Of a stretch of DNA of 64,000 nt, positions 12,340-63,481 are shown piece after piece. The notes beneath the pieces are model-generated. The model did not search any database. It was not told where the DNA came from and was given only the letters and a program-made list of their open reading frames with translations. Each line of letters opens with the position of its first letter. Positions within the stretch are counted from its first letter, which is position 1. A program made the position numbers and the translations under genes. Source of the stretch: a bacterium (GTDB taxonomy: Bacteria > SAR324 > NAC60-12); the NCBI GenBank assembly GCA_965205865.1, contig CBDBHR010000010.1, positions 48,710 through 112,709 of the forward strand, given 5' to 3'.

Positions 12340-14091
12340 CCTAAGTTGAGCGATTCGTAATAAAAAAAGCTCCCAACCTTGGGAAAAATGTGTTATATTT
12401 CAGTGGTTAAAATAAAAAAATTCACAAAATCTAACACAACCCAACAGGTAGAGAGCTTTATGGGAAAAAATATAACAGTTCAGGATAAAAAGAAACAGAT
12501 AATTGATGCCATTCAGCCAACCGATGAACACTTGACAAGTCGTGCCGGATTGGCCTTGTTTGCCCAGTATCTGCAAAGCATTCGGCTGATGCCGATCATC
12601 GAAAGGTTGTTTGGTTCGATGCGTAAAAATAAAAAAGGAATTGCTGTCTCTGATTTTTTTGTGCAGATCCTCTGTTTTTTCATGGACGGCAGCAGCCGTC
12701 ATCTCAGTTGGTTCGATCACCTCAAAAGGGGCGAGGGTTATGCCGCCTTGCTGTCATGCAGTGAGCAAGACCTTGCCTCCTCGCATGCCGTGAAAAGATT
12801 TTTTGGAAAGTTCTCTTTTGTACGAGTCTACCTGTTTCGTCATCTGCTGCAGATACTGTTTATCTGGAGACTGAAGAAGACTTGTCCAACGGTGATTGTG
12901 TTGGGTCTGGATTCGATGGTACTTGATAATGATGATGCCCTGAAACGCCATGGTGTCCAGCCGACTTACAAGATGGTCAAAGGATTTCATCCCCTGCAGA
13001 TGAATTGGGGTCGTTATATGGTTGACGCAGTTTTTCGCGGAGGTAGCAAACATTCGAATCACGGGAAAACTGTTCAGAATATGCTGGTTCATATCGTGAA
13101 AAGGATTCGCCGCCAATACCGAGATGATGTACCAATCATGGTGCGCATGGACACCGGTTTTTTTGACGAAAAAATCTTTGAAACCTGTGAACGACTGAAC
13201 ATCGGTTAGCTGAAGCGGAGGAAAGTCCTATGCCAATGTGAGGAATGCTGCGGAAGAAGCCACTGACTGGCAGACCTTCACTTCATCGGGCAAGAAGGAG
13301 ATCTGGCAGTACACCGAGTTTAAGAGCCAGCAGGGGACATGGAAGAAGGCTCGTCGCACGATCTACAGCCGCTTGATTGAACACGATAGCCAACTCTCTT
13401 TGCCGGGTTTGGATCATGATGGCGTGATCATTACGAACCTTGGTATGGGAGAGGCCATTGATGGCCAACTCAGCCAAGCCGCTGAAGAAAAGCGCATCGA
13501 TGCTCATAGCATCCTTGGCTCGTACCACGGACGGGGAAAGGATGAACTGGCCAACCGGGCGCTGAAAAACTTTGGTCATCAACAACTTCCCTTCAAGGAC
13601 TTCATTTCCAATACCGCATGGTACTATCTGATGCTGCTTGGCAATAACCTCTTCGAATCCTTCAAAGAAGATGTCAGCAAGCCAGTGATTGCGGTAACGA
13701 TGTATGCTGATACCTTCCGGCGCCAGTTTCTTGATACGGCAGGCAAACTGCTTCGTCATGCCGGAAAACTGATCTTGAAAATACCAAAAAAGACCTTTGA
13801 GCGCTTGCAATTGGACCAACTATTTGCCACCTGCCAGCACGCATTGGCGCCAATCTGATCAACGGGTTTCGCTTCAATTAAAAAACAAAAACATTAAAGT
13901 TTAAGGGGATAAGTGCGTCCAAAACATGAGAAATGAAGACCTTCCACATCTGAAAACAGCATTTTGATGCTCATTCTCACTCAAACATCCATGGATTTGA
14001 TGATCAAAATCTGATTTCAGAATGATTGCCTTTCTCAGGCAAAAAAATCATCTTGAAAATCTGATCCTTTTTTAGAATCGCTCAATTTGGG
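12340..14091 (+). mobile_element. IS1380 family element with disrupted transposase (12460-13858)
   Basis: IRs CCTAAGTTGAGCGATTC / GAATCGCTCAATTTGGG (15/17); LTSRAGL, VRMDTGF, YHGRGKDE motifs; stop and frameshift at about 13207; no target duplication. Confidence 0.9.
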
Positions 14092-17311: not shown

Positions 17312-17669
17312 GGGGTCAGGCTTGCAAGTTTGCAAATTTAAGAAAACATTTTTAGGTTGAGTTCTTTTAACCGCTCTTGGAGATTTGTGGATTCCTTCAA
17401 TCTTTCTCTCAACTTATGTGCGCCACGACTGACAGTAGAATCATCTCGATTGAGAGCATTTGCCACTTCTCGGATTGTTGCAGATTTCCAATCGAAGACT
17501 GATAAAAGCGTCGAGAGTCGCAGTCATCGAAAAAAAAACGTTGGCCCCCATCGCCTCAACGTATCACATGATAAAGCGTACCAGAGTCGTACAAACGCGT
17601 TTTCCGAGACATCTTAGCAAATTGAAAAAGGTTAAAATTTAAAGAATACCCATTTCGTGCATGACCACC
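17312..17669 (-). mobile_element. Non-autonomous miniature element derived from a RAYT-like (Y1 HUH) transposase, copy 1
   Basis: Terminus GGGGTCAGGCTTGCAAGTTTGCAAA; MSRKTRLYDSGTLYHVIR*GDGGQRFFFDD fused to C-terminal HTH EVANALNRDDSTVSRG; other end degenerate. Confidence 0.8.
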
Positions 17670-22826: not shown

Positions 22827-23612
22827 CGCTCGAATCGGGATAGGAAGGGGTTTTTCTCCCCTCCCTCCCACACCACCCCGCATACGGGTCCGTACGGGGC
22901 GATTCCCAAAGAGTGTCGGGCCGTAGCCGGACCAGATTTGCAGCCACAAACCTGTACGTTTATTCGTCCCACAACGCACCTATTTTAATCATCTCCACCG
23001 GTCGGCTTCATCAATGTACAGAGCATATGGGATAGAGCGTTCTCTTGGGTTCGGGCCTTCACTCTCCAGGAGCTACTATGCCCTCGGCTGACTTCTGACC
23101 GCCTTCGTTGCCGATTACTCGACACCGCGCTACCTGAGACAAACGAGAAGAAGGAGAGTGATGCGCAAGAGAGGAATTAACCGCTCCTGGCTCTTCTAGT
23201 CTTCATCTCACTATCTCCGACCGCATCACGATCAGATCTCCCCGGGTAAGAGCATGAACTTTCCCTACACAATCGCAGCATTTACCATCCTCCTTAATCC
23301 GAGTGGACATCGCAATGTCGTGCTTGCTCGCCCCGAAGTTCAGCCTTATATGCTGTTTCTGTCCGTCGACTCGTAGGTTTGCGCTCAGGCTTCCTCCGCA
23401 CGGCTCGTCACCTCCCCGCACTTGCCCTCGGCTAGTACTTTTTAAAGTTGTAATCACAAGCTGACTAGTATACTTTTCGGATAATGTACAGGGGACTCAC
23501 ACCCCATAAGTTCATGCCCATGCCGGGCACACACAAGCTGCTTGAGGTCGAAATTTGGGGCGGCGTTTGTACCTCACTCTGCCCCAAAGTCGCCTCAGCT
23601 GTTCGATTAGAC
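22827..23612 (+). other. Integron attC-like site split by the intron
   Basis: After removing the intron: CTCGAAC-AAGCT-GCTTGAGG...TTTGGGGC/GCCCCAAA...CCTCAGC-TGTTC-GATTAGAC hairpin with an extrahelical base. Confidence 0.75.
22834..23532 (-). ncRNA. ORF-less class C (IIC-attC type) group II intron, 699 nt
   Basis: 5' GTGTGCCCGGCATGG; short DV with CGC triad (ATCGCCCCGTACGGACCCGTATGCGGGGTGGT); 3' end CTATCCCGAT; exons TTGT|T. Confidence 0.9.
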
Positions 23613-52458: not shown

Positions 52459-52825
52459 GGGGTCAGGCTTGCAAGTTTGCAAATTTAAGAAAACATTTTT
52501 AGGTGGAGTTCTTTTAACCGTTCTTGGAGATTTGTGGATTCCTTCAATCTTTCTCTCAACTTATACACTCCACGACTGAAAGTTGCATCATCTCGCTTGA
52601 GAGCATTTGCCACTTCCCGGATTGTTGCAGATTTCCAATCGAAGACTGATAAAAGCGAAGAGAGTCGCTGTCATCGAAAAAATACGTTGCCCCCATTGCC
52701 TCGAAGTATCACATAATAAAGCGCACCAGGATACTACAAACGCAGTTTCAGAGACATCTTGGCAAATTGAAACGGTTAAAATTTAAAAAAATACCCCATT
52801 TTTGCAAACTTGCAAGCCTGACCCC
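52459..52825 (-). mobile_element. RAYT-derived miniature element, copy 2, with perfect 25-bp terminal inverted repeats
   Basis: GGGGTCAGGCTTGCAAGTTTGCAAA at 52459-52483 and its reverse complement at 52801-52825; YPGALYYVILRGNG remnant; same internal deletion as copy 1. Confidence 0.88.
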
Positions 52826-52839
52826 GATACTGACCCCGA

Positions 52840-53120
52840 TAAGATGCTGACTATCGGCCGAGCCTTGCTGAGACAACCGCGCTTGCTGTTGCCGGATGAA
52901 CCCCTCGGAAGGCGTGTGGGTCGGTGTGGTTTCCGAGATTGGAGACCGCTTATGCGATTTGGCCCGGTAGATGACAATCGTGATTGTTGAACAAAACATC
53001 GATCTGGGATTGCGTGTGGCTGATTTGGCCTATATAATACTCCGCGGGGAAATTGTTTTAAGTGGTTCAGCCGAGGAAATTCAAAAAGAAAATCGACTGA
53101 AGCAGTATCTGGCACCCTGA
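52840..53120 (+). pseudogene. LivF-like ABC ATPase C-terminal fragment
   Basis: MLTIGRALLRQPRLLLPDEP, IVIVEQN...GEIVLSGSAEEI. Confidence 0.75.
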
Positions 53121-54129: not shown

Positions 54130-54587
54130 AGGCGCTTCTTCGAATGCGATCTTCGCTGATCTTTGCAATAAAGCGTTTCATTTTGTTCAGCCACGAGGAG
54201 GAAGTTGGAATGAAATGCAGATGAAATCGAGGGTCTATTTTAAGCCATGCTTTCACTACGACCTGAGCGCTTTTTCCAATTTATAACATGTGACTATCAC
54301 ACCTACACTCGACTGCTGGGACCTGCCTTCATAATACCAATACTCTTCTTTTAGACCTCGCAGGCTGAGTGAGAACCACTGTTCCAGCGACGTCAAGATG
54401 ATGATTTATGAAATGTTAAAGGATTACTCGGCAATCATGAAAATTCCAGGATTGCTTGATCCGTCGCCCCAATCGATGAACCCTGTCATTCTGGGATGAA
54501 AGGCAAAATCAGAATCCCACCTGAAAAGCATTTTTCCAAACTTGCAAGCTTGACCCCCGAACAAACTTGCAAGCTTGACCCCCGAAC
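54118..54587 (-). mobile_element. Degraded IS630 fragment ending in a doubled GGGGTCA terminus (duplicate of 59958-60427)
   Basis: RFHLHFIPTSSSWLN; constant 5840-bp offset to the second copy; tandem CAAACTTGCAAGCTTGACCCC. Confidence 0.8.
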
Positions 54588-54694: not shown

Positions 54695-55159
54695 ATGAAA
54701 GCAATAAGTATCATAGAAATATACGAACGTTTCCCGAACGAGGAATCTGCACAAGATTTTTTAACAACCCTTCGCTGGGGCAACAAACCTGAATGCCCCT
54801 ACTGCCATTCCCACAAGATAGCCAGGCATCAAGAAAAGAAAAGGCGCAACAGGCTGCAATGCTGGGGTTGCAATAAGTCTTTCTCTCCTATGGTAGGCAG
54901 CATCTTCCATAAAAGCCATTTACCATTGAGAAAATGGTTTCTGGCTATTTGCCTAGTTGTCAATGCCAGGAATTCACTCTCGAATCGTCAACTTGGCCGT
55001 GATTTGGGTGTTGCTGTTCCTACTGCCTGGAGGATCGGAACAAAAATAAGGCAAGCTATGTTGAATGACCCGGCACAAAAAATGCTCTTTAAGGGTATCG
55101 TAGAAATGGATGAGACCTATATCGGGGGGATCTCCCAGAAGAGAGAACAAGAAAGATGA
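54695..55159 (+). mobile_element. IS1595 family transposase, 3'-truncated
   Basis: RW...CPYC..C..C zinc ribbon, GSIFHKSHLPLRKWF, GIVEMDETYIGG. Confidence 0.85.
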
Positions 55160-55232
55160 TGATGAGGGTTCAACCAGGGAACGTGAAACGAAAAAGCTCC
55201 TGTCCCGAAGGTGGGAACGAAGGTTCGATTCC

Positions 55233-55648
55233 TTGTTCGCCGCTTCATCGCTACTACGAACTTGTCCGACTTCCTGAAGACGTAGATATCGGGGTTATTT
55301 ATTAATTTTCCCGATCCGACTACCAATGGAATGTTGACAGTCGTCTTCAGGATCTCCCAGGTTCCGGTCAAGAAACTTCCACACATGCACCGGGTCTTTG
55401 ACTCCGCCAGGCTCAGCCGAGACTCACGCTAAGGCCTTCGGTTGATATTGCCTTCCCCACCAGACCACAAGGTCAGCGCCTGAAACTATGATTTCGGAGC
55501 TCAATACCGAGCCTATGTTCTCCCCTGTCAACGCTTAGCGCCTATCCTTGCGAATAACCACTCATGACTCGGGGACTCTGCGGGTCGTTACTGCCTTACC
55601 GAGTAAGAGACTTTCACTCTCTATTTCTTGCCAGCTTTCCTGGCGCAC
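55233..55648 (-). ncRNA. Group II intron 5' fragment (class E-like)
   Basis: Begins GTGCGCCAGG; near-identical to 62950-63465; no DV/DVI. Confidence 0.85.
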
Positions 55649-55662
55649 AGCCTGACCCCGAT

Positions 55663-56283
55663 TTAGGCTTTCGTCGCGCAGAAGTAACCTTTGGTACCGG
55701 ATTTGAAGGTGGCGCTTCGCCAACTTCCGGCAAATCCTTCTGCGGAGATTTCATGTACTTCCAACACTGTGTAGGCGCCATCGTAACGGATCAGGTCACG
55801 CTGGTTCGCGGTCGAGCCAAGCCGTAAAAGGATGCTACGCTCGCCGGTGTAGTTCCCCTCTAGTACGAGTACGCCGGGAGCCTGCGGGTCTTCACTGAGC
55901 AGACTGCCTACGCGATGTGCTCCAACCGCTTTGATATCGACGTCCGTGAATCCGTACAAAGGCGTTGATGCGCTGCCCAACGAGTCGAGTCCTTCCGGAG
56001 CATCGAGCAACGTGAGCGTGCCTTGCGCAGACCGGCCATCTGCGCCAAATGAAGGTTTTACGAGCGTCAACCGGTAACTACCGCTTCTGTCCGCCAAAGT
56101 CGCGTCCATGCTGAGGCTCCCGGAAACAGGCATACAAGCGTCTTGCTGTGAATTTCCAGTCTTGGATTCGCCTCCAACGATGGGTTTCACGAACGTCCCG
56201 CAACCCACCAGCACGGTGAGGGCAATCATGGTCAGAAATGCGCTCTTGTACCTACCCACGAGTCTCATTTTGCTACCCTTCAC
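55663..56283 (-). CDS. Hypothetical lipoprotein
   Basis: Lipobox LVGC; overlaps the upstream peptidase stop. Confidence 0.7.
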   Translation of the reverse strand: MKGSKMRLVGRYKSAFLTMIALTVLVGCGTFVKPIVGGESKTGNSQQDACMPVSGSLSMDATLADRSGSYRLTLVKPSFGADGRSAQGTLTLLDAPEGLDSLGSASTPLYGFTDVDIKAVGAHRVGSLLSEDPQAPGVLVLEGNYTGERSILLRLGSTANQRDLIRYDGAYTVLEVHEISAEGFAGSWRSATFKSGTKGYFCATKA

Positions 56284-58259
56284 TCGATTATGTCGACAAC
56301 GTTACCATCCGTATCGATCACCTGGATGGGACCTCTTATGACATCGTCGTAGTGATGAATTTGGTCTTCAGGGGCCCTTCTCGACGCAGTACCCGGGGAA
56401 GGCAGACGATACGGGTCGGCCTGAGAGACATCAACGGTATAGCCGAGATCGGCCAGAGACTGGATTGTGATCGCGCTCACCGGTTCCTCAGAACCACCTC
56501 CGCCGATTGTACTCATGATCTCGTTGCCGAAGACGGACTCCCGCCAGTGAGAGTCCCGGGAGCCGGCACCCCATTCTTCACCGTTTTCCACCGGCACCTT
56601 TTTTCCCCGGTAGTTTGCGCCGCCCGCATTGTTGAAAGCTGCAATGGCCAGTGGGCCCGAAAAATATGTGTCAGGCGCAGGATCAATCGGTTCGTAATTC
56701 TCATCGAGGGATGGATTTTGTAGAAAGCCGAATTTGTCCCAGGGAATACTACCAATCCCCAGAGCGTGTCCCATCTCATGCACGGCCGTGTCGAGAAAAT
56801 CAATCCTTGACATATCATTTATATCAGCAATGTCGAAGTGCACTATTCCCGTAACCGGCAGAAACGACTGCATCCTTACGACTCTCGTACCAGCATTTGC
56901 CCATGCGCCAGCGGGACCATCGATTTCTTCTAATTTCACCTCTATCAGCAAGTCATCGACAACGCCCAAGAAGACATAGTCACGAGTTTCATAAAACTTC
57001 GGGCTTTGCATGTCCAGCAGATCGCCTGTGATGATGGATTCCCATCTGTCAGCGGCTTGCTTGAACATCGCTCTCTGATCTGTTGTGAAAGCGCCGGTGA
57101 AAAGTAGATCGATATTGAAGTTACCCGGGTCCGATGCGCTTACCGACACTGAGATATCCTGGGATTTGTCATTCGAAGCGTTGGGATCGGTCGCTGTCAC
57201 CCTGACCGTGGCTGTTCCCTGCGAGCGCGGAATGAGTATCACCATACCGTCCGAAATCCGGGTACTTACATATCTACCATTGCTCGAAAGCGCCGTATAA
57301 TTCAGCTCTTCGGCCGGGTCGTCGAAGTAAAGCGACAAACAGGAATGCTTACTGCCCACAGTCGTCTTGAATACCGCAATTGCATCCACTTGCAGGAACA
57401 AACAATCAGGAAAGACTTCCCCCGCCATTTTTTCTACCAACACCGTGTGCCAATTCAATCCAATGTTGGAAAATCCATCGCTGCTTACGAGATCATAGGA
57501 ACCTGCGGTAGGTGAATCAAAGGTAAGATGGAAATTATAATGGAAGGGAAAATAATCAAAATTCAATTTAAGCAAACCTTCATTTTGGCCTTTTTTCGAG
57601 TAGGTATAACTCCCAGAAGACCCGCCGTCTAAGTTTGCATAAGTTATACGGAAACGGCCTTGAGGCATAATTTCAATAAGGTCCAAGTATGTTATCAAAC
57701 GTCTTCCTTCGAAAAGACGGCTGAACGCCTGCGGATCTGCCGGAGCGTGAGTGGCAGGAATATCGGTTAGCTGCCATATGCTTGAATCGCTTTCTCCTTC
57801 ATTGCAACCAAAGGTCGTGATCTTATCGGTATCCGAGGTGAAAGTGAGTTGGATTGTACAAGGGGAAGGATTGCCATTATAGAAATTCATCGTCAGTTCT
57901 CCCGTGTGCAGAACTGTTTTGGAATAGGTGTAGCTCCCTCTGTATTTTTGGCTGTCCCTGGCGTAAATGAATCGATTCTGAGACAGAAAATCGATATAAT
58001 GTTGGGCTGATGCTTGTAAACGTATGCCGGTTACGAGATTATTGAATGCATGCTGGTCTGCCGGAGCAAATGATATAGGTTCCTCATCATTGTCGCCATC
58101 ATCTGTTGGTCCAGAAGTGGTTTCCTCACCTTCGTCACCATCACCACTACCTCCGCCTCCACACCCGCCGAGCGAGACAACGATGACAAGCAGTGCGATT
58201 ACCAGAAGCTGAATTACAATTCTTACAGGTTGATCGATCGTAGTGAGTGATTTTGACAT
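56280..58259 (-). CDS. Leishmanolysin-like (M8) zinc metallopeptidase lipoprotein with Ig-like domain
   Basis: LGGC lipobox, VTATDP, HEMGHALG, SHWRESVFGNEIM, SLADLGY. Confidence 0.85.
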   Translation of the reverse strand: MSKSLTTIDQPVRIVIQLLVIALLVIVVSLGGCGGGGSGDGDEGEETTSGPTDDGDNDEEPISFAPADQHAFNNLVTGIRLQASAQHYIDFLSQNRFIYARDSQKYRGSYTYSKTVLHTGELTMNFYNGNPSPCTIQLTFTSDTDKITTFGCNEGESDSSIWQLTDIPATHAPADPQAFSRLFEGRRLITYLDLIEIMPQGRFRITYANLDGGSSGSYTYSKKGQNEGLLKLNFDYFPFHYNFHLTFDSPTAGSYDLVSSDGFSNIGLNWHTVLVEKMAGEVFPDCLFLQVDAIAVFKTTVGSKHSCLSLYFDDPAEELNYTALSSNGRYVSTRISDGMVILIPRSQGTATVRVTATDPNASNDKSQDISVSVSASDPGNFNIDLLFTGAFTTDQRAMFKQAADRWESIITGDLLDMQSPKFYETRDYVFLGVVDDLLIEVKLEEIDGPAGAWANAGTRVVRMQSFLPVTGIVHFDIADINDMSRIDFLDTAVHEMGHALGIGSIPWDKFGFLQNPSLDENYEPIDPAPDTYFSGPLAIAAFNNAGGANYRGKKVPVENGEEWGAGSRDSHWRESVFGNEIMSTIGGGGSEEPVSAITIQSLADLGYTVDVSQADPYRLPSPGTASRRAPEDQIHHYDDVIRGPIQVIDTDGNVVDIIE

Positions 58260-58516
58260 ATTTCCTCTTTTTTCCGGAGTTGCAACAGGAGGCGCTTGTA
58301 ACGGCGCCGGGTTATTGCCGACAAGACCAGGACTGAGGACACGTCCCGATTATTTATCCACTTGAAGGGAGTTACTCTGCAAGTTGGGATTAGGGATTCT
58401 TTTATTCACCGGGTGACCCGACAAATATCCAAGTCCAGTTCACTAAGAATATTCAGAAGCCGTTTGTCAAAAAAATACATGTCTACCAGATTTCCACTTT
58501 TTTGAATAGCAGATTG

Positions 58517-58660
58517 ATGTATCCAAGCGATTTAAGCGATCAGGAACGGTCTCAGTTTGAACATTTTTTTAAACGTTCCGACTCCCGGCGGGGCAAAAAT
58601 ATTCTTAGCAAACATACAATCGTCAATGCGATTTAATATGTGGTGAAAACAGGTTGTTAA
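58517..58660 (+). mobile_element. IS5 transposase N-terminal remnant
   Basis: MYPSDLSDQE...IVNAI*YVVKTGC. Confidence 0.7.
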
Positions 58661-58778
58661 GTGTGAAAACTGAAAACGATTCTAAAGATAAGGGGCATTA
58701 ATTGGGAAAAATAAAAGCGTATTAACGCCATACCAGTGTCGACATTTCAGGTAACCAATATCCTACACCATCATCCGT

Positions 58779-59786
58779 TCAACGATTCATGACGGTGATT
58801 TCATGATCTGCAACAGACTCGCCGTTTACATGCACCTCCATACGCCAAATTCCAGGAGGAACAGACACAATTATATTCCAGTACCAGTATGAATGGCGAT
58901 GCTCTTTTTGAAAGGTCACCCGTCTATCATATTCTTGTCCATTATTTCCACTACGTAAAACGACACGTAGCTCGTCACCTCTATCGCCTCCTGCTGCCGA
59001 AAGCCCTACACCCAGTGTCGAGCCCACAAAGATCGAGTCGATATTGGGTGGAGGATCCTTCACATCGTCAACTCCCGTTATCATTCCATCTTGCACGTTG
59101 TAGTCCATGAGCGTTAGCGGCCTGTCGTAGTGCGGTGGATCTCGCCACAGCTTTTCGAGAAAAGGGTCGATAACTTCTCCGCTTTTGCTTCGTAACTCGA
59201 AATGAAGATGAGGTGCTGTCGAACACCCGGAGCTACCGATGACGCCGAGTTCCTGTCCGGCTTTCACCTCTTGCCCTATCGAAATCTCGACGGAGCCTTT
59301 CTTGAGGTGGCCATAAATGGAACGCAACTCGTTCAAATGGGTTATCTCCACAAAGTTCCAGTCCCCGACACAAGATACGTTTCGATCGTATTCACCATCG
59401 TGAAGCGCAGTGATACGGCCCGCTGCTGCGGCAAGTATCGGGAAGTCGTTGTCCATCCAACGAAAGTTGGGAACATCGATGTCGACGCCATTGTGCCCAT
59501 CATATACCTTTGTACCTTCGCGGTAGTCACGAAGTCCCGGCCCGGGATCAAGATCCACATAATTGTTGATGACCCAGTCAACCCCGTCTACGCCAGGCAC
59601 GGGCCAATGAAGACGGAACGATTCAGGTTGCTGCTCTGTACCATTGTCATCACTTGTCGTCTTCTCACCATTGCCACCACTTGTCGTCTTCTCACCGTTG
59701 CCACCACCACCACACCCGGTGAGCATAGTCGAAACAAAAAAAGCGAATATCAGCAACCAAAGCGCATTATGTAAATTGTTTTTCAT
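58779..59786 (-). CDS. M23 family metallopeptidase lipoprotein
   Basis: LTGC lipobox, HNGVD, YGHL, GSSG.STAPHLHFE; duplicated GGNGEKTTS linker. Confidence 0.9.
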   Translation of the reverse strand: MKNNLHNALWLLIFAFFVSTMLTGCGGGGNGEKTTSGGNGEKTTSDDNGTEQQPESFRLHWPVPGVDGVDWVINNYVDLDPGPGLRDYREGTKVYDGHNGVDIDVPNFRWMDNDFPILAAAAGRITALHDGEYDRNVSCVGDWNFVEITHLNELRSIYGHLKKGSVEISIGQEVKAGQELGVIGSSGCSTAPHLHFELRSKSGEVIDPFLEKLWRDPPHYDRPLTLMDYNVQDGMITGVDDVKDPPPNIDSIFVGSTLGVGLSAAGGDRGDELRVVLRSGNNGQEYDRRVTFQKEHRHSYWYWNIIVSVPPGIWRMEVHVNGESVADHEITVMNR

Positions 59787-59809
59787 AAATTCCTCTTTGA
59801 TTTAGTCTA

Positions 59810-60427
59810 TTGACTTGTCAATACGTTTTAAAATTAGTCATTTGATAGACGGGTTTGAGTTTTTCAATTTTTTCTATGGCAATTTTAGTCCAGATAAAGG
59901 GTTTTGGATTACGATTGTGTGTTTCGAGAAAACTATGGAAAGCCTCGGTCGACTAAAGAACGCATTTGAAGACTCCTCTTCGAATGCGTTCTTCGCTGAT
60001 CTTTGCAATAAAGCGATTCACTTTGTTCAGCCACGAGGAGGAAGTTGGAATGAAATACAGATGAAATCGACGGTCTATTTTAAGCCATGCTTTCACTACG
60101 ACCTGCGCGCTTATTCCAATTTATAACATGTGACTGTCGCACCTACACTCGATTGGTGAGACCTACCTTCAAAATACCAATGCTCTTCTTTAAGACATCG
60201 CAGGCTGAGTGAAAACCACTGCTCCAGCGACGTCGAGTTGATAATTTATGAAATGTTAAAGGATTACTCGGCAATCTAAAAAATTCCGGGATTGCTTGAT
60301 CCGTTGCCTCAATTGATGAACCCTGTCACTCAAGGACAAAAAGCAAAATCAGAAACACACTTGAAATGCATTTTTCCAAACTTGCAAGCTTGACCCCGAA
60401 ACAAACTTGCAAGCTTGACCCCGAAAC
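59810..60427 (-). mobile_element. Degraded IS630 fragment, second copy, with doubled GGGGTCA terminus
   Basis: HNRNPKPFIWTK C-terminus; FIPTSSSWLN. Confidence 0.8.
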
Positions 60428-60484
60428 TGCCTTACCGAGTAAGAGACTTTCACTCTCTATTTCTTGCCAGCTTTCCTGGCGCAC
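60426..60484 (-). ncRNA. 59-nt 5' stub of the same group II intron
   Basis: Identical to 55590-55648. Confidence 0.8.
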
Positions 60485-60496
60485 GGCCTGACCCCA

Positions 60497-60600
60497 TTTA
60501 AGGCCGCCGTCGCTCGTGGTCTGGCCGGAGGTCTCGGTGTCCCAGTTACTGGCGGTGACGGCGCCATCGAAGTGGGTTGCCCCAACCAGGCCGCCGCTCC
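60497..60600 (-). pseudogene. GLUG-motif surface protein fragment
   Basis: GGLVG...VTASNWDTETSGQTTSDGG. Confidence 0.55.
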
Positions 60601-60694
60601 AAATGGATTTAGCCCGGCTCGTCCTTCCCAAAAGCTATGATGGATAGCCCCAAACATCTTGCGGCCTTCCTTGGAATCCTTTCTCTCTGAAGCT

Positions 60695-62344
60695 CTACGG
60701 ACGAAGGGCTGCAACTGCCTCTTCCAGCAGTATCTGATGGTACTCCAGGAAATTCTGACGCGTAACCGGGATGTAGGTATCGGGTTGTGCTGGGTTACCC
60801 TCCAGGACTTCGCCGTTTGGTCGAATTGTGTGACCAATACTCCACTGGAACTTCACCACAGGCCTTGTCGTACCTGGAAAGTAGAGTACTTCATCCTCCT
60901 CCCAAGTGTTGCTGTATCCTCCTGTGGGCACCCCCACGAAGACCCCGAGATCGTTATCGACAAGCATGGCAACGAACTGGTCCAGGTGTGAACCACCCCA
61001 GGTTCTGGCATTCATTATGGCCACCTTCCCACTGAAGTGTACAGGGGCAGGCTGGAGAATGCCGTCGGAATCCTTGGGCAGGTGGGCAAGTTTGAAGGGC
61101 ACCGGAGGGGTATATTCATCGCCGCGGCGGATCGCTTCGGTTGCATCGGTGTGCGCCCAATCGACCAACCACCTATGGCTTAGATTGAGACCGAATATGT
61201 CCGGCTCATCTGTCCTTACACTTATACGCATAAGTTCTCCAATCTTTTCCCTTCCAAGGTCGCTTAGACGGACATTACCGAATGTCGTGCGGAAAGGACG
61301 GTCAACCAACCGTTGTATCGCGTAGGCGCCGCGCGAACCGCCACTACTGTAAGTAACGTCTATGATCATGTCGTAGTCGAGTATCTGCTCCTGCTCCGCA
61401 TACTCCATCAGGTCAACGATGTCCTGGATCAGCGAGTACTCAAAGTCCAGCCATTCAAGCAAGATTATTCGCCGACTCCGGTCAAGCAGGATATTGAAAT
61501 TTTCCCTCTCCATGACCTCGACGAACCCAGGGTAGGTGTCAATTAAAGGCCAATAATAGCAGCCATTGCTATAAGGCAGCGAAACGTCGTATTGCTGACC
61601 CGACGGGCGCTCAAGGGTGAGGTTCAAGCGTTTTGAATATGAACTCAGCGGGACGCTGGCAACCTGTTTAGGCAACTCGTATGCCATTTGCCAATATAGC
61701 CCGTGAAGAGTGGAATGGTGAATCCAGGGAGCGAATTCGTCTATGTACGCCGACATTGACTGACGGTTGACGCCTACGATAATGTCACCGGGTTCCGGTG
61801 AGGACAACCCGTCACGAACTGCGGCGACAAAGAACATTGGATTCTTAATGTCCGAGTAGTCAGGAAGTACATGAATCGGTGCAGAGACGCATGGCATCCT
61901 TTCTGGGGGTTGCAAGCCGCCCTCAACCGGGCGCACCCGGAGATGTCTGTCACGCCGTGCGTTGCTGAGCTTCACTAGCGCGAAATACAGGTCCGCTTCG
62001 GTTTCGGAGGCGATGAACTCGGCACGGAGTTTCTTCATATCCTCCAGAGCGGAAAACCCTATGTTTCTTTCTTTGATCACTGAAAAGGCTTCCCGTTGTT
62101 CAGTCTTGCTAATGATCTCATCAAACAGCGGCTCCAGATATTCATCCCAATCCTTTGATGGACTATCATCTGGTGGACTATCATCACCAGCTGGTGGACT
62201 ATCATCTTGTGGACTATCATCACCAGCATTAGAACATCCATTCAAGACGCTTGCTCCCATGATGAGAGCCAGCATGAACACCATCATCAGCAAATTAATT
62301 TTCATAAACGATCCAAAAAGGATTCCCTTTTTCTTAATAGACAT
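60695..62344 (-). CDS. S41 peptidase-like lipoprotein with PDZ-like segment
   Basis: LNGC lipobox, DDSP repeats, PGDIIVGVN, IIDVTYSSGG, GVPTGG, EGNPAQPD. Confidence 0.7.
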   Translation of the reverse strand: MSIKKKGILFGSFMKINLLMMVFMLALIMGASVLNGCSNAGDDSPQDDSPPAGDDSPPDDSPSKDWDEYLEPLFDEIISKTEQREAFSVIKERNIGFSALEDMKKLRAEFIASETEADLYFALVKLSNARRDRHLRVRPVEGGLQPPERMPCVSAPIHVLPDYSDIKNPMFFVAAVRDGLSSPEPGDIIVGVNRQSMSAYIDEFAPWIHHSTLHGLYWQMAYELPKQVASVPLSSYSKRLNLTLERPSGQQYDVSLPYSNGCYYWPLIDTYPGFVEVMERENFNILLDRSRRIILLEWLDFEYSLIQDIVDLMEYAEQEQILDYDMIIDVTYSSGGSRGAYAIQRLVDRPFRTTFGNVRLSDLGREKIGELMRISVRTDEPDIFGLNLSHRWLVDWAHTDATEAIRRGDEYTPPVPFKLAHLPKDSDGILQPAPVHFSGKVAIMNARTWGGSHLDQFVAMLVDNDLGVFVGVPTGGYSNTWEEDEVLYFPGTTRPVVKFQWSIGHTIRPNGEVLEGNPAQPDTYIPVTRQNFLEYHQILLEEAVAALRP

Positions 62345-62718
62345 AACTTCTCCTTATCTTATTCAGGTTGAAGGAATTAATTAGAAAGGGGTCAGGCCTT
62401 GATTAAATGAAAAAGGGGCAAAAAAACTGGACTCGTTCCTAATCAAATAATCAAAGTCACCGTAAAGAACTGACTTATAGTGGTTTCCAGCCACCTTTCG
62501 TCATTCCTCCGGTACAGATCCGGACGTGCGCTGCTAACGCATCCGGCTCCTGCTTCGAGTCAGACGCTCAAACGTTGCCGTTTGGCGCACCCTGCTTAAA
62601 CCGCTCTCTGATTTTACCGGCCTCTGAGTTCCGAACACAGGAGGGCAAGCAGAATTCCTCTCAGCCAAGTCCCTTTGCTCCACAGGCTCCGTTGATTTCC
62701 TTTGCATTGTTACTTTTA

Positions 62719-62925
62719 CCTAAATTGAGCGATTCTATAAAAGAATCAGATTATTATGACGCTATATTCCCCGTCAGACCGGTCAAACTCTTGTATATTT
62801 CCCATAAAGCTCTCTACCCGTTGGGTTGTGCTCGATTCTATCGAAACAACAGTATTACTCACTGATATAAAATACTTTTTCTCCACGAGTAATAGATTTT
62901 TTTGTCATGAATCGCTCAATTTAGG
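62719..62925 (-). mobile_element. 207-bp IS1380-derived MITE
   Basis: Perfect 17-bp IR CCTAAATTGAGCGATTC; TTTTA target duplication; retains the transposase start region CACAACCCAAC.GGTAGAGAGCTTTATGGGAAA. Confidence 0.92.
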
Positions 62926-62981
62926 TTTTACTCTCTACAAATAATCTCATTGTTCGCCGCTTCATCGCTACTACGAACTTG

Positions 62982-63138
62982 TCCGACTTCCTGAAGAAGT
63001 AGATATCGGGGTTATTTATTAATTTTCCCGATCCGACTTCCTGAAGAAGTAGATATCGGGGTTATTTATTAATTTTCCCGATCCGACTTCCTGAAGAAGT
63101 AGATATCGGGGTTATTTATTAATTTTCCCGATCCGACT
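62982..63138. repeat. 3x 50-bp tandem repeat inside the intron
   Basis: Units start at 62982, 63032, 63082; single unit in the 55.2-kb copy. Confidence 0.95.
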
Positions 63139-63481
63139 ACCAATAGAATGTTGACAGTCGTCTTCAGGATCTCCCAGGTTCCGATCAAGAAACTTCCACA
63201 CATGCGCCGGGTCTTTGACTCCGCCAGGCTCAGCCGAGACTCACGCTAAGGCCTTCGGTTGATATTGCCTTCCCCACCAGACCACAAGGTCAGCGCCTGA
63301 AACTATGATTTCGGAGCTCAATACCGAGCCTATGTTCTCCCCTGTCAACGCTTAGCGCCTATCCTTGCGAATAACCACTCATGACTCGGGGACTCGGCGG
63401 GTCGTTACTGCCTTACCGAGTAAGAGACTTTCACTCTCTATTTCTTGCCAGCTTGCCTGGCGCACGGCCTGACCCCTTTTT

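Follow-up and report, generated by a model that had tools for sequence, protein, structure and literature searches.

A group II intron lineage probably specialised on the outer ends of TIRtron-type transposons in a SAR324 bacterium

Three copies of a group II intron lie in a window of 64,000 nucleotides (nt) from a SAR324 bacterium (assembly GCA_965205865.1, contig CBDBHR010000010.1, positions 48,710 to 112,709; coordinates without a contig name are those of this window). Judged by sequence, this intron lineage is likely to be specialised on the multicopy outer end (GGGGTCAGGCY) of the terminal inverted repeats (TIRs) of TIRYT/TIRtron transposons and of their miniature derivatives. A lineage specialised on a multicopy terminus had been proposed in the initial annotation of the window, and the proposal held up: the same insertion point is used in diverged transposon subfamilies and in both orientations of a mini element, the intron carries a sequence that pairs with the insertion site, and its closest relatives sit in the same kind of repeat. 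The intron copies, their exons and one unoccupied target are located as follows.

62456..63465, minus strand: full copy of the intron without open reading frame (ORF), 1010 nt, with 5′ GTGCG at 63465 and 3′ GGTGAC at 62456
63466..63476, minus strand: 5′ exon GGGGTCAGGCC of the full copy, the outermost 11 nt of the terminal inverted repeat, containing intron-binding site 1 (IBS1, CAGGCC)
62388..62455, no strand assigned: 3′ exon of the full copy, the other 68 bp of an 80-bp TIR-bounded mini element, terminating in an inverted GGGGTCAGGCC
55230..55648, minus strand: 5′ intron fragment with domains I–III, ~419 nt, 3′ side missing, placed by RF02005 (157.6 bits) and blast coordinates
55649..55659, minus strand: 5′ exon GGGGTCAGGCT of the fragment, 3 nt past the stop of the co-oriented ORF 55663-56283
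60426..60484, minus strand: third copy, a 59-nt 5′ stump interrupted by other repeat DNA ending in GGGGTCAAGC
60485..60495, minus strand: 5′ exon GGGGTCAGGCC of the stump, with the junction at 60484
52459..52825, no strand assigned: unoccupied TIR-bounded element of 367 bp, a target without intron, in which N- and C-terminal scraps of a Y1 transposase gene are kept

The minus-strand junctions were GGGGTCAGGCT/GTGCG at 55648 and GGGGTCAGGCC/GTGCG at 60484 and at 63465, exactly where the initial annotation had placed three copies behind a common 5′ exon; the upstream sequence of all three is GGGGTCAGGC followed by C or T. When the full copy is excised, 11 nt (63476-63466) meet 68 nt (62455-62388) in a 79-bp unit with inverted ends. 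Such a restored mini element had also been claimed, and 12 uninterrupted counterparts of 80-91 bp were found in the genome. With at most one mismatch, the motif occurs 12 times in the window compared with 3.2 ± 1.8 times in shuffled sequence, and 0 of 100 shuffles reached 12. These junctions could also be read the other way round, with the transposons inserting beside pre-existing intron 5′ exons and the intron or exon serving as their target. An extra partial GGGGTCAG outside some element ends and a TIR-ended segment that cuts the third intron copy at nt 59 are consistent with this order of events. However, the sequences flanking the intron rejoin into intact TIRs that are present uninterrupted many times, intron removal restores the exact 79-80-bp element, and 165 of 193 sites of the 9-mer GGGTCAGGC have no intron. 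Insertion of the transposons beside the intron is therefore highly improbable, and the intron is taken as the invading element.

Genome-wide, 41 intron 5′ junctions and 38 3′ ends were counted, and 30 copies have both ends. The exact 10-mer GGGGTCAGGC fills positions −11 to −2 at 23 of the 41 junctions; one base differs in eight, two in six and three or four in three, and the remaining one is an intron-intron tandem. T stands at −1 in 25 and C in 16 of these junctions; at +1, 25 of the 30 complete copies have T. The insertion point is constant, between repeat base 11 and the following T. The DNA beyond the motif differs, as had been noticed for the window copies: positions −120 to −17 are alike in only one pair among the 41 junctions, although a weak common A-rich consensus is seen at −16 to −12. 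The 10-mer itself has 145 exact matches in the genome, compared with ~7 expected from composition, and among the 193 sites of the 9-mer an intron follows in 28. At −16 to −12, A fills on average 3.2 of 5 positions in occupied and 2.3 of 5 in empty sites (Mann-Whitney p = 4e-4), and the G-rich positions −8 to −11 are retained at degenerate sites. These two results suggest that recognition exceeds six bases. The 3′ exons of the complete copies belong to the 80-bp unit in one orientation (five copies) or the other (six), to 1206-type ends (two), to TGCAAG/TGAAAG/TGCGAG/TGTGAC ends (five), to TGCATA ends (four) and to a TCGTTA end (one); automatic labels had lumped some of these types, and two rows were reassigned by eye, among them C25:21471, moved from the 80-bp to the 1206 class.

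The motif forms the outer end of TIRs that bound units of 80, 367, 815, 1033, 1048 and 1206 bp. TIR pairs at 1048, 1206, 1033 and 815 bp enclose a transposase gene, and the 80- and 367-bp pairs have none. The long units encode a protein of ~330 amino acids (aa) with an IS200-like Y1 domain (PF01797; 53.6 and 46.8 bits for the two query transposases, cut-off 23) and a DnaA C-terminal helix-turn-helix (PF08299, Bac_DnaA_C). Five near-identical genes of one transposase subtype are present in the genome. The initial annotation had described the element as RAYT-type, that is, as related to the transposases associated with repetitive extragenic palindromes (REPs). A Y1 transposase was indeed found; the RAYT identity was given up, the NCBIfam model NF047646 scoring 70.8 and 65.6 bits, below its cut-off of 80. 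In the study of Di Nocera et al. (2013, PMC3733652), genes of the kind found here were named TIRYTs and their elements TIRtrons, with GGGGWSAS as a motif common to some of the TIRs; GGGGTCAG agrees with this motif. Because of the Y1 gene, the TIRs and the fit to GGGGWSAS, the target was termed a TIRtron family and not a RAYT/REP system. A weak consensus G-A-A-A-N was observed outside many element ends (in the window at 52826-52840, and genome-wide), and at some ends an additional, incomplete GGGGTCAG lies outward of it by a few bases. The 10-mer may therefore be only part of the true repeat, or of the site at which the transposon inserts. A decayed element of the Y1-transposase family was also seen at 17312-17621 of the window, with an exact motif at 17312 and gene scraps on the minus strand.

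Five intron copies are placed immediately upstream of full-length transposase genes, toward which they read. Two of these five genes are near-identical duplicates, and the remaining three match the two query proteins with identities of 64%, 43% and 39-78%; for the five as a set, the identity range was 43-99%. On a tree of 28 intron copies (built from the first 395 and the final 230 nt of every copy), target types are scattered among one another, even inside a tight subgroup with A at intron nt 183 (A183). One insertion point in diverged ends, together with the mixed tree, indicates that repeated insertion is needed and not one copied junction. The initial annotation had named a single insertion copied together with the terminus as the finding that would overturn it, and the flanks, the tree and the diverged transposase genes all speak against that case. 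A related possibility is hitchhiking, in which the intron invaded just one or a few transposon ends, once, and the Y1 transposase or recombination then copied the intron-bearing elements. Copies are concentrated in islands rich in the same elements, two pairs with common flanks are clear duplicates (C28:358767 with C29:409363; C29:726248 with C29:734414), and one flank is common to three copies of the same-genus genome, all as expected from hitchhiking. However, the same insertion position was found in at least seven downstream contexts, which include both 80-bp orientations and transposase genes only 43-78% identical. Moreover, the tree shows no grouping of intron lineages by target type, several degenerate-motif sites have no recognisable element, and exon-binding site 1 (EBS1) of the intron is complementary to the insertion site. 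Hitchhiking is accordingly considered unlikely as the explanation, and repeated insertion into transposon ends is preferred.

Two segments of domain I were considered as the part of the intron that reads the repeat.

63278..63283, minus strand: EBS1 GGUCUG (intron nt 183-188), within the 9-nt loop at the tip of a hairpin in domain I, placed by alignment to the Rfam model and by covariation
63249..63253, minus strand: GGCCU, the first proposed EBS1, in a separate domain I hairpin; a minority variant of GGCGU

G-U wobbles let GGUCUG pair with the six exon bases next to the intron, CAGGCC or CAGGCU, and this wobble pairing fits the choice of C or T at −1. The pairing, a check on which had been advised in the initial annotation, was examined by covariation in a domain I alignment of 20 relatives found via the intron-encoded protein (IEP). 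The hexamer at aligned nt 183-188 pairs 6/6 with the last six exon bases in 16 of the 20 relatives, with 14 distinct hexamers represented; in a control with mismatched partners the mean was 3.0/6, and 5% reached 6/6. AGCCUG goes with CAGGCU in a genome of the same genus, and UGGCUG with CAGCCA in one of the same family. EBS1 also follows the local repeat further away, as UGUCUG with CAGGCA in Psychrobium and as CGCCUG with CAGGCG in a planctomycete. On these alignments, a predicted EBS1-IBS1 pairing of the kind that defines the insertion point of group II introns is present. GGCCU, the speculative EBS1 of the initial annotation, was abandoned: it lies in the other hairpin, most copies, among them all four with the ORF, have GGCGU in its place, and relatives conserve GCG there. 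At position 63250, the contigs of all four public runs that cover it have C and the window has G. Within the family, no clear compensation was seen between A183 or G183 of EBS1 and the −1 base (T/C 7/4 for A183 and 10/9 for G183; Fisher p = 0.71). Single-sequence minimum free energy (MFE) folds of domain I were set aside because they did not reproduce the comparative structure.

The link between intron and repeat recurs in other genomes. Among 60 relatives, domain I was found in only one same-genus and one same-family genome, many of the 60 genomes being incomplete. The same-genus genome, with 84 transposase matches, carries the intron in a TIR-bounded mini element whose end is GGGGTCAGGC (locus L032), and also upstream of a homologous transposase leader. 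In the Psychrobium chromosome, AAGGGACAGGCA occurs 14 times versus 0 for its reversed control. The local intron copies have it as their 5′ exon, and it forms inverted pairs around truncated copies; an unoccupied element also begins with AAGGGACAGGCA and has a Y1-like ORF 90 nt inside (weak Pfam match, E = 1e-3). In a planctomycete metagenome-assembled genome (MAG), GGGGWCAGGC occurs 149 times versus 22 in the control and forms inverted pairs of 50-70 bp, and the introns sit in units with an inverted repeat at the far end. The repeats that host the closest relatives (same genus, Psychrobium and planctomycete MAG) end in GGGRWCAGGC.

Several observations weigh against a specialisation on TIRtron ends. 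The 3′ exon of seven of the 30 complete copies, one of them the tandem, could be assigned to no TIR family. The copies are locally clustered, for example five in 40 kb of contig 28, and therefore some of the spread may be due to local duplication or to transposition of intron-bearing elements. A joint across the whole intron was found in none of the contigs of the four public runs, a result that decides nothing on empty alleles, splicing or transcription. In the covariation test, the boundary was set by alignment for seven relatives with atypical 5′ ends (GAAAGCG or GAUAGCG), and that of L020 was moved by one base after the pairing had been seen, so these rows of the 20 were not blind. A second exon-binding site (EBS2) was sought by covariation over the domain I alignment, and the best column reached 3 of 16 sequences; the Id internal loop has 5-6 bp of potential EBS2 pairing only in single relatives (L025, L022/L027), too weak to claim. 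No EBS2 partner was thus found for the G-run, and the conservation of this run may just reflect the conserved TIR target. Y1 loci found with the transposase query in Psychrobium and Endozoicomonas have no flanking motif. The exon 8-mer is not enriched in Endozoicomonas (78 versus 125 in the control) or in Thiodiazotropha (102 versus 96). Finally, relatives whose IEPs are ~47-55% identical have unrelated exons. Homologous introns in unrelated targets were what the initial annotation had regarded as fatal; they were found only at this distance, the closest relatives being in the same repeat kind, and specialisation is therefore a property of a sub-clade and not of the whole RF02005 family.

The last of these points also bear on motif coincidence, in which the intron merely needs an 11-nt IBS that is frequent in the genome and the transposon link is evolutionarily meaningless. 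Site choice is explicable by base pairing alone, and both the unrelated exons of distant relatives and the lack of 8-mer enrichment in two other host genomes are in line with this. On the other hand, the same link was seen in genomes of different phyla, EBS1 changes track the local repeat in Psychrobium, the planctomycete and the same-genus genome, and the motif agrees with the published cross-species TIRtron consensus (PMC3733652). A mere coincidence of motifs thus appears very unlikely, and specialisation on the transposon end is retained as the best explanation.

The intron family itself was characterised in the genome. Of the complete copies, 16 of 30 are 689-703 nt long, the canonical ORF-less form being 692 nt, and six are length variants, the window copy among them. 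Four copies are 1957 nt with an open 470-aa frame, and one is 2039 nt with a broken frame. The four intact copies supply the reverse transcriptase (RT)-encoding parent that the initial annotation had suggested looking for, in the same genome. Their IEP scores 342.7 bits on NCBIfam TIGR04416 (group II RT/maturase, cut-off 300); Pfam gives RVT_1 only, with no nuclease (D/En) domain, and RF02005 reaches 168 bits in an ORF-bearing copy. Three further copies are ~1600 nt with a second, nested intron. Their ~900-bp insert in domain IV (C30:1205800-1207600, C28:326218 and C29:628615) matches RF02003 with 33 bits, below the gathering score of 49, and on this weak match the inserts are read as nested introns. 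A head-to-tail intron pair was observed at C26:239009-239712, where GGTGAC of one intron is directly followed by GTGCG of the next. Pairwise identity among copies has a median of 97%. The ORF-less copies retain the first 44 codons of the IEP and cluster together on the tree, on which their split from the ORF-bearing copies is exaggerated because the last 230 nt of the latter include coding sequence. The introns of Thermosynechococcus elongatus in the 2010 work of Mohr et al. reportedly show a similar arrangement, with nested introns and with many near-identical ORF-less copies mobilised in trans by few ORF-bearing ones; they are said to have spread to varied sites by EBS changes and not to one transposon end.

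The intron is an endonuclease-free, IIB-like group II intron, putatively of E/F type; its sequence features are compatible with class E as well as with class F or another variety. The earlier label "class E-like" agrees with the domain V loop and the endonuclease-free IEP, both of which fit the E/F description. The upper helix of domain V is GCGU/GCGC around UAGCA, a 5-nt loop, to which the MFE fold adds a U-A pair that leaves a 3-nt loop; relatives have an identical 13-nt domain V layout. Classes E and F have been described by a domain V loop of 5 nt instead of GNRA and by an IEP without endonuclease domain (PMC3753933). Class IIC, which targets terminators and attC sites, was rejected: the best Rfam family is RF02005, the insertion point is defined by sequence and lies 11 nt into the repeat, and the upstream flanks show no relation to one another. 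Within the full copy of the window, the following parts were recognised.

62516..62549, minus strand: domain V, with the UAGCA loop region where a GNRA tetraloop would be
62456..62514, minus strand: domain VI, with a putative branch A at 62463 (placed by position) and the 3′ end ...GAC
62576..62707, minus strand: what ORF deletion left of the IEP reading frame, residues 1-44 (tblastn, 97.7% identity over 44 aa)
62710..62927, no strand assigned: foreign 218-bp insert in domain IV, a miniature derivative of a DDE-transposase insertion sequence (IS), by similarity to the IS ends
62982..63081, minus strand: two additional copies of a 50-nt domain II unit, of which canonical copies have one

RF02005 (group II D1-D4-6, gathering score 49) gave 163.7 bits at 63209-63431 and 157.6 bits at 55392-55614, both on the minus strand. 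The RF00029 (D5/D6) match stops exactly at 62456, with 31 bits, under the gathering score of 40 (E = 6e-4 on a 1.1-kb stretch), and on this basis the full copy was taken as 62456-63465. GTGCG forms nt 1-5, the 3′ end is ...UUUACGGUGAC, and D5-D6 with a putative bulged A and a 3′ AY were found. None of the three window copies has an IEP ORF. Compared with the canonical 692-nt form, whose length was set by the genome copies, the full copy has the two extra 50-nt repeat units and the 218-bp foreign insert, whose boundaries are ambiguous by about five bases. The parent IS of this insert lies at ~12340-14091 (DDE_Tnp_1_4, ORF split into 12379-13209 and 13238-13858). The joint 62709->62928, the form without the insert, was present in contigs of all four public runs, and the joint 62981->63082, the form without the 100 nt, in contigs of two of the four.

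From these features, we infer that the intron splices and is mobile. The RT/maturase would still come from the four copies that encode it. A single internal deletion would have produced the 692-nt ORF-less form, which would then have multiplied with the protein acting in trans. New copies would arise when the RNA of the intron inserts by reverse splicing into target DNA and is reverse transcribed. Because the IEP has no endonuclease, reverse splicing would probably use single-stranded DNA at replication forks; the use of single-stranded DNA has been described for introns with endonuclease-free IEPs (PMC4424553). Some part of the ribonucleoprotein would also read two further stretches, a G-run (−8 to −11) and an A-run (−13 to −16). 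Each insertion would part the outermost 11 bp from the rest of the repeat by 0.7-2 kb and probably disables that transposon end for the transposase. In the window, the fragment (55648) is 3 nt downstream of a co-oriented ORF stop and the stump (60484) ~200 nt downstream of another ORF, and this position just past co-oriented ORFs makes read-through transcription of the two plausible. A broader scenario is possible but doubtful, in which the whole intron clade co-evolved with TIRYT/TIRtron elements across phyla, the GGGGWSAS-type end being a portable homing site to which EBS1 was retuned for each local variant; such introns may brake the transposons, and may reverse-splice into single-stranded DNA exposed by HUH transposition and ride the transposon intermediates.

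Other features in the neighbourhood of the intron copies were recorded as well. The genes bracketed by the three copies (55663-62344, minus strand) encode an M8-like peptidase (56280-58259), an M23 peptidase (58779-59786) and two proteins without Pfam match, all co-oriented with the introns. A truncated IS1595-type transposase at 54695-55159 (plus strand), with only the zinc-ribbon PF12760, abuts the 3′ break of the intron fragment. Variant ends in tandem, GGGGTCAAGC then TTGCAAGTTTG, at 54548-54582 and 60388-60422 bound a segment of ~480 bp. Two copies of this segment with 90% identity are in the window, one of which cuts the intron stump at nt 59, and no transposase homology was found in the segment between the tandem variant ends. 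An unrelated second group II intron of a different family lies at 23054-23417 on the minus strand (RF02001, 110 bits; RF01998, 54 bits).

The nearest known case is RmInt1 of Sinorhizobium meliloti (PMC5894124), which also has no endonuclease domain and has its natural site in a multicopy insertion sequence, ISRm2011-2. Its site is likewise read mainly by EBS/IBS pairing, with ectopic sites that resemble the IBS, and its insertion has been reported to block spread of the IS (PMC5894124). However, RmInt1 is of class D and inserts inside the transposase gene of one IS630-family element (PMC5894124), whereas the target here is the outermost repeat of many diverged Y1 elements and miniatures, in a link that recurs in unrelated bacteria. 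The IIC introns of terminators and attC sites are similar in being specialised on a multicopy, structured DNA motif and not on a gene, but they insert after a stem-loop and without EBS2 (PMC4424553); the present intron belongs to RF02005, has a full 6-bp EBS1 and inserts inside the repeat. Group IIE/IIF introns share with it the small IIB-like ribozyme, the odd-sized domain V loop, the endonuclease-free IEP and the EBS1-IBS1 duplex (Nagy et al., 2013, PMC3753933), but no counterpart was found here to the EBS2 duplex that the published examples appear to have. On the side of the target, TIRtrons have Y1/HUH genes flanked by TIRs that fit GGGGWSAS and are also dispersed as dimers (PMC3733652). 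In that paper, "group II intron" and "DnaA" have 0 occurrences; the elements here are multicopy with a DnaA_C-like domain. Extragenic repeats also serve as landing sites for REP-targeting IS elements, and a P. putida group II intron has two of nine copies at REPs (Tobes and Pareja, 2006, PMC1525189). The link seen there is weak, received no analysis and concerns GTAG-type REPs, not TIRYT repeats. Our literature search found no paper linking group II introns to TIRYT/TIRtron/RAYT, REP, IS200/terminal inverted repeats or miniature inverted-repeats.

In a 2015 review, three target specificities are given for bacterial group II introns, namely ordinary homing sites, terminators and attC sites (PMC4424553). 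An intron clade linked to the terminal repeat of one transposon superfamily would add a fourth recognisable habit to these, on a repeat conserved enough for the same link to appear in unrelated bacteria. In the genome studied here, the intron accounts for dozens of repeat junctions, which is of value for annotation. For the barely studied TIRtrons it offers a handle, since it marks the end bases that stay constant and leads to testable predictions on silencing. Moreover, it would clearly exemplify a selfish element that lives on another.

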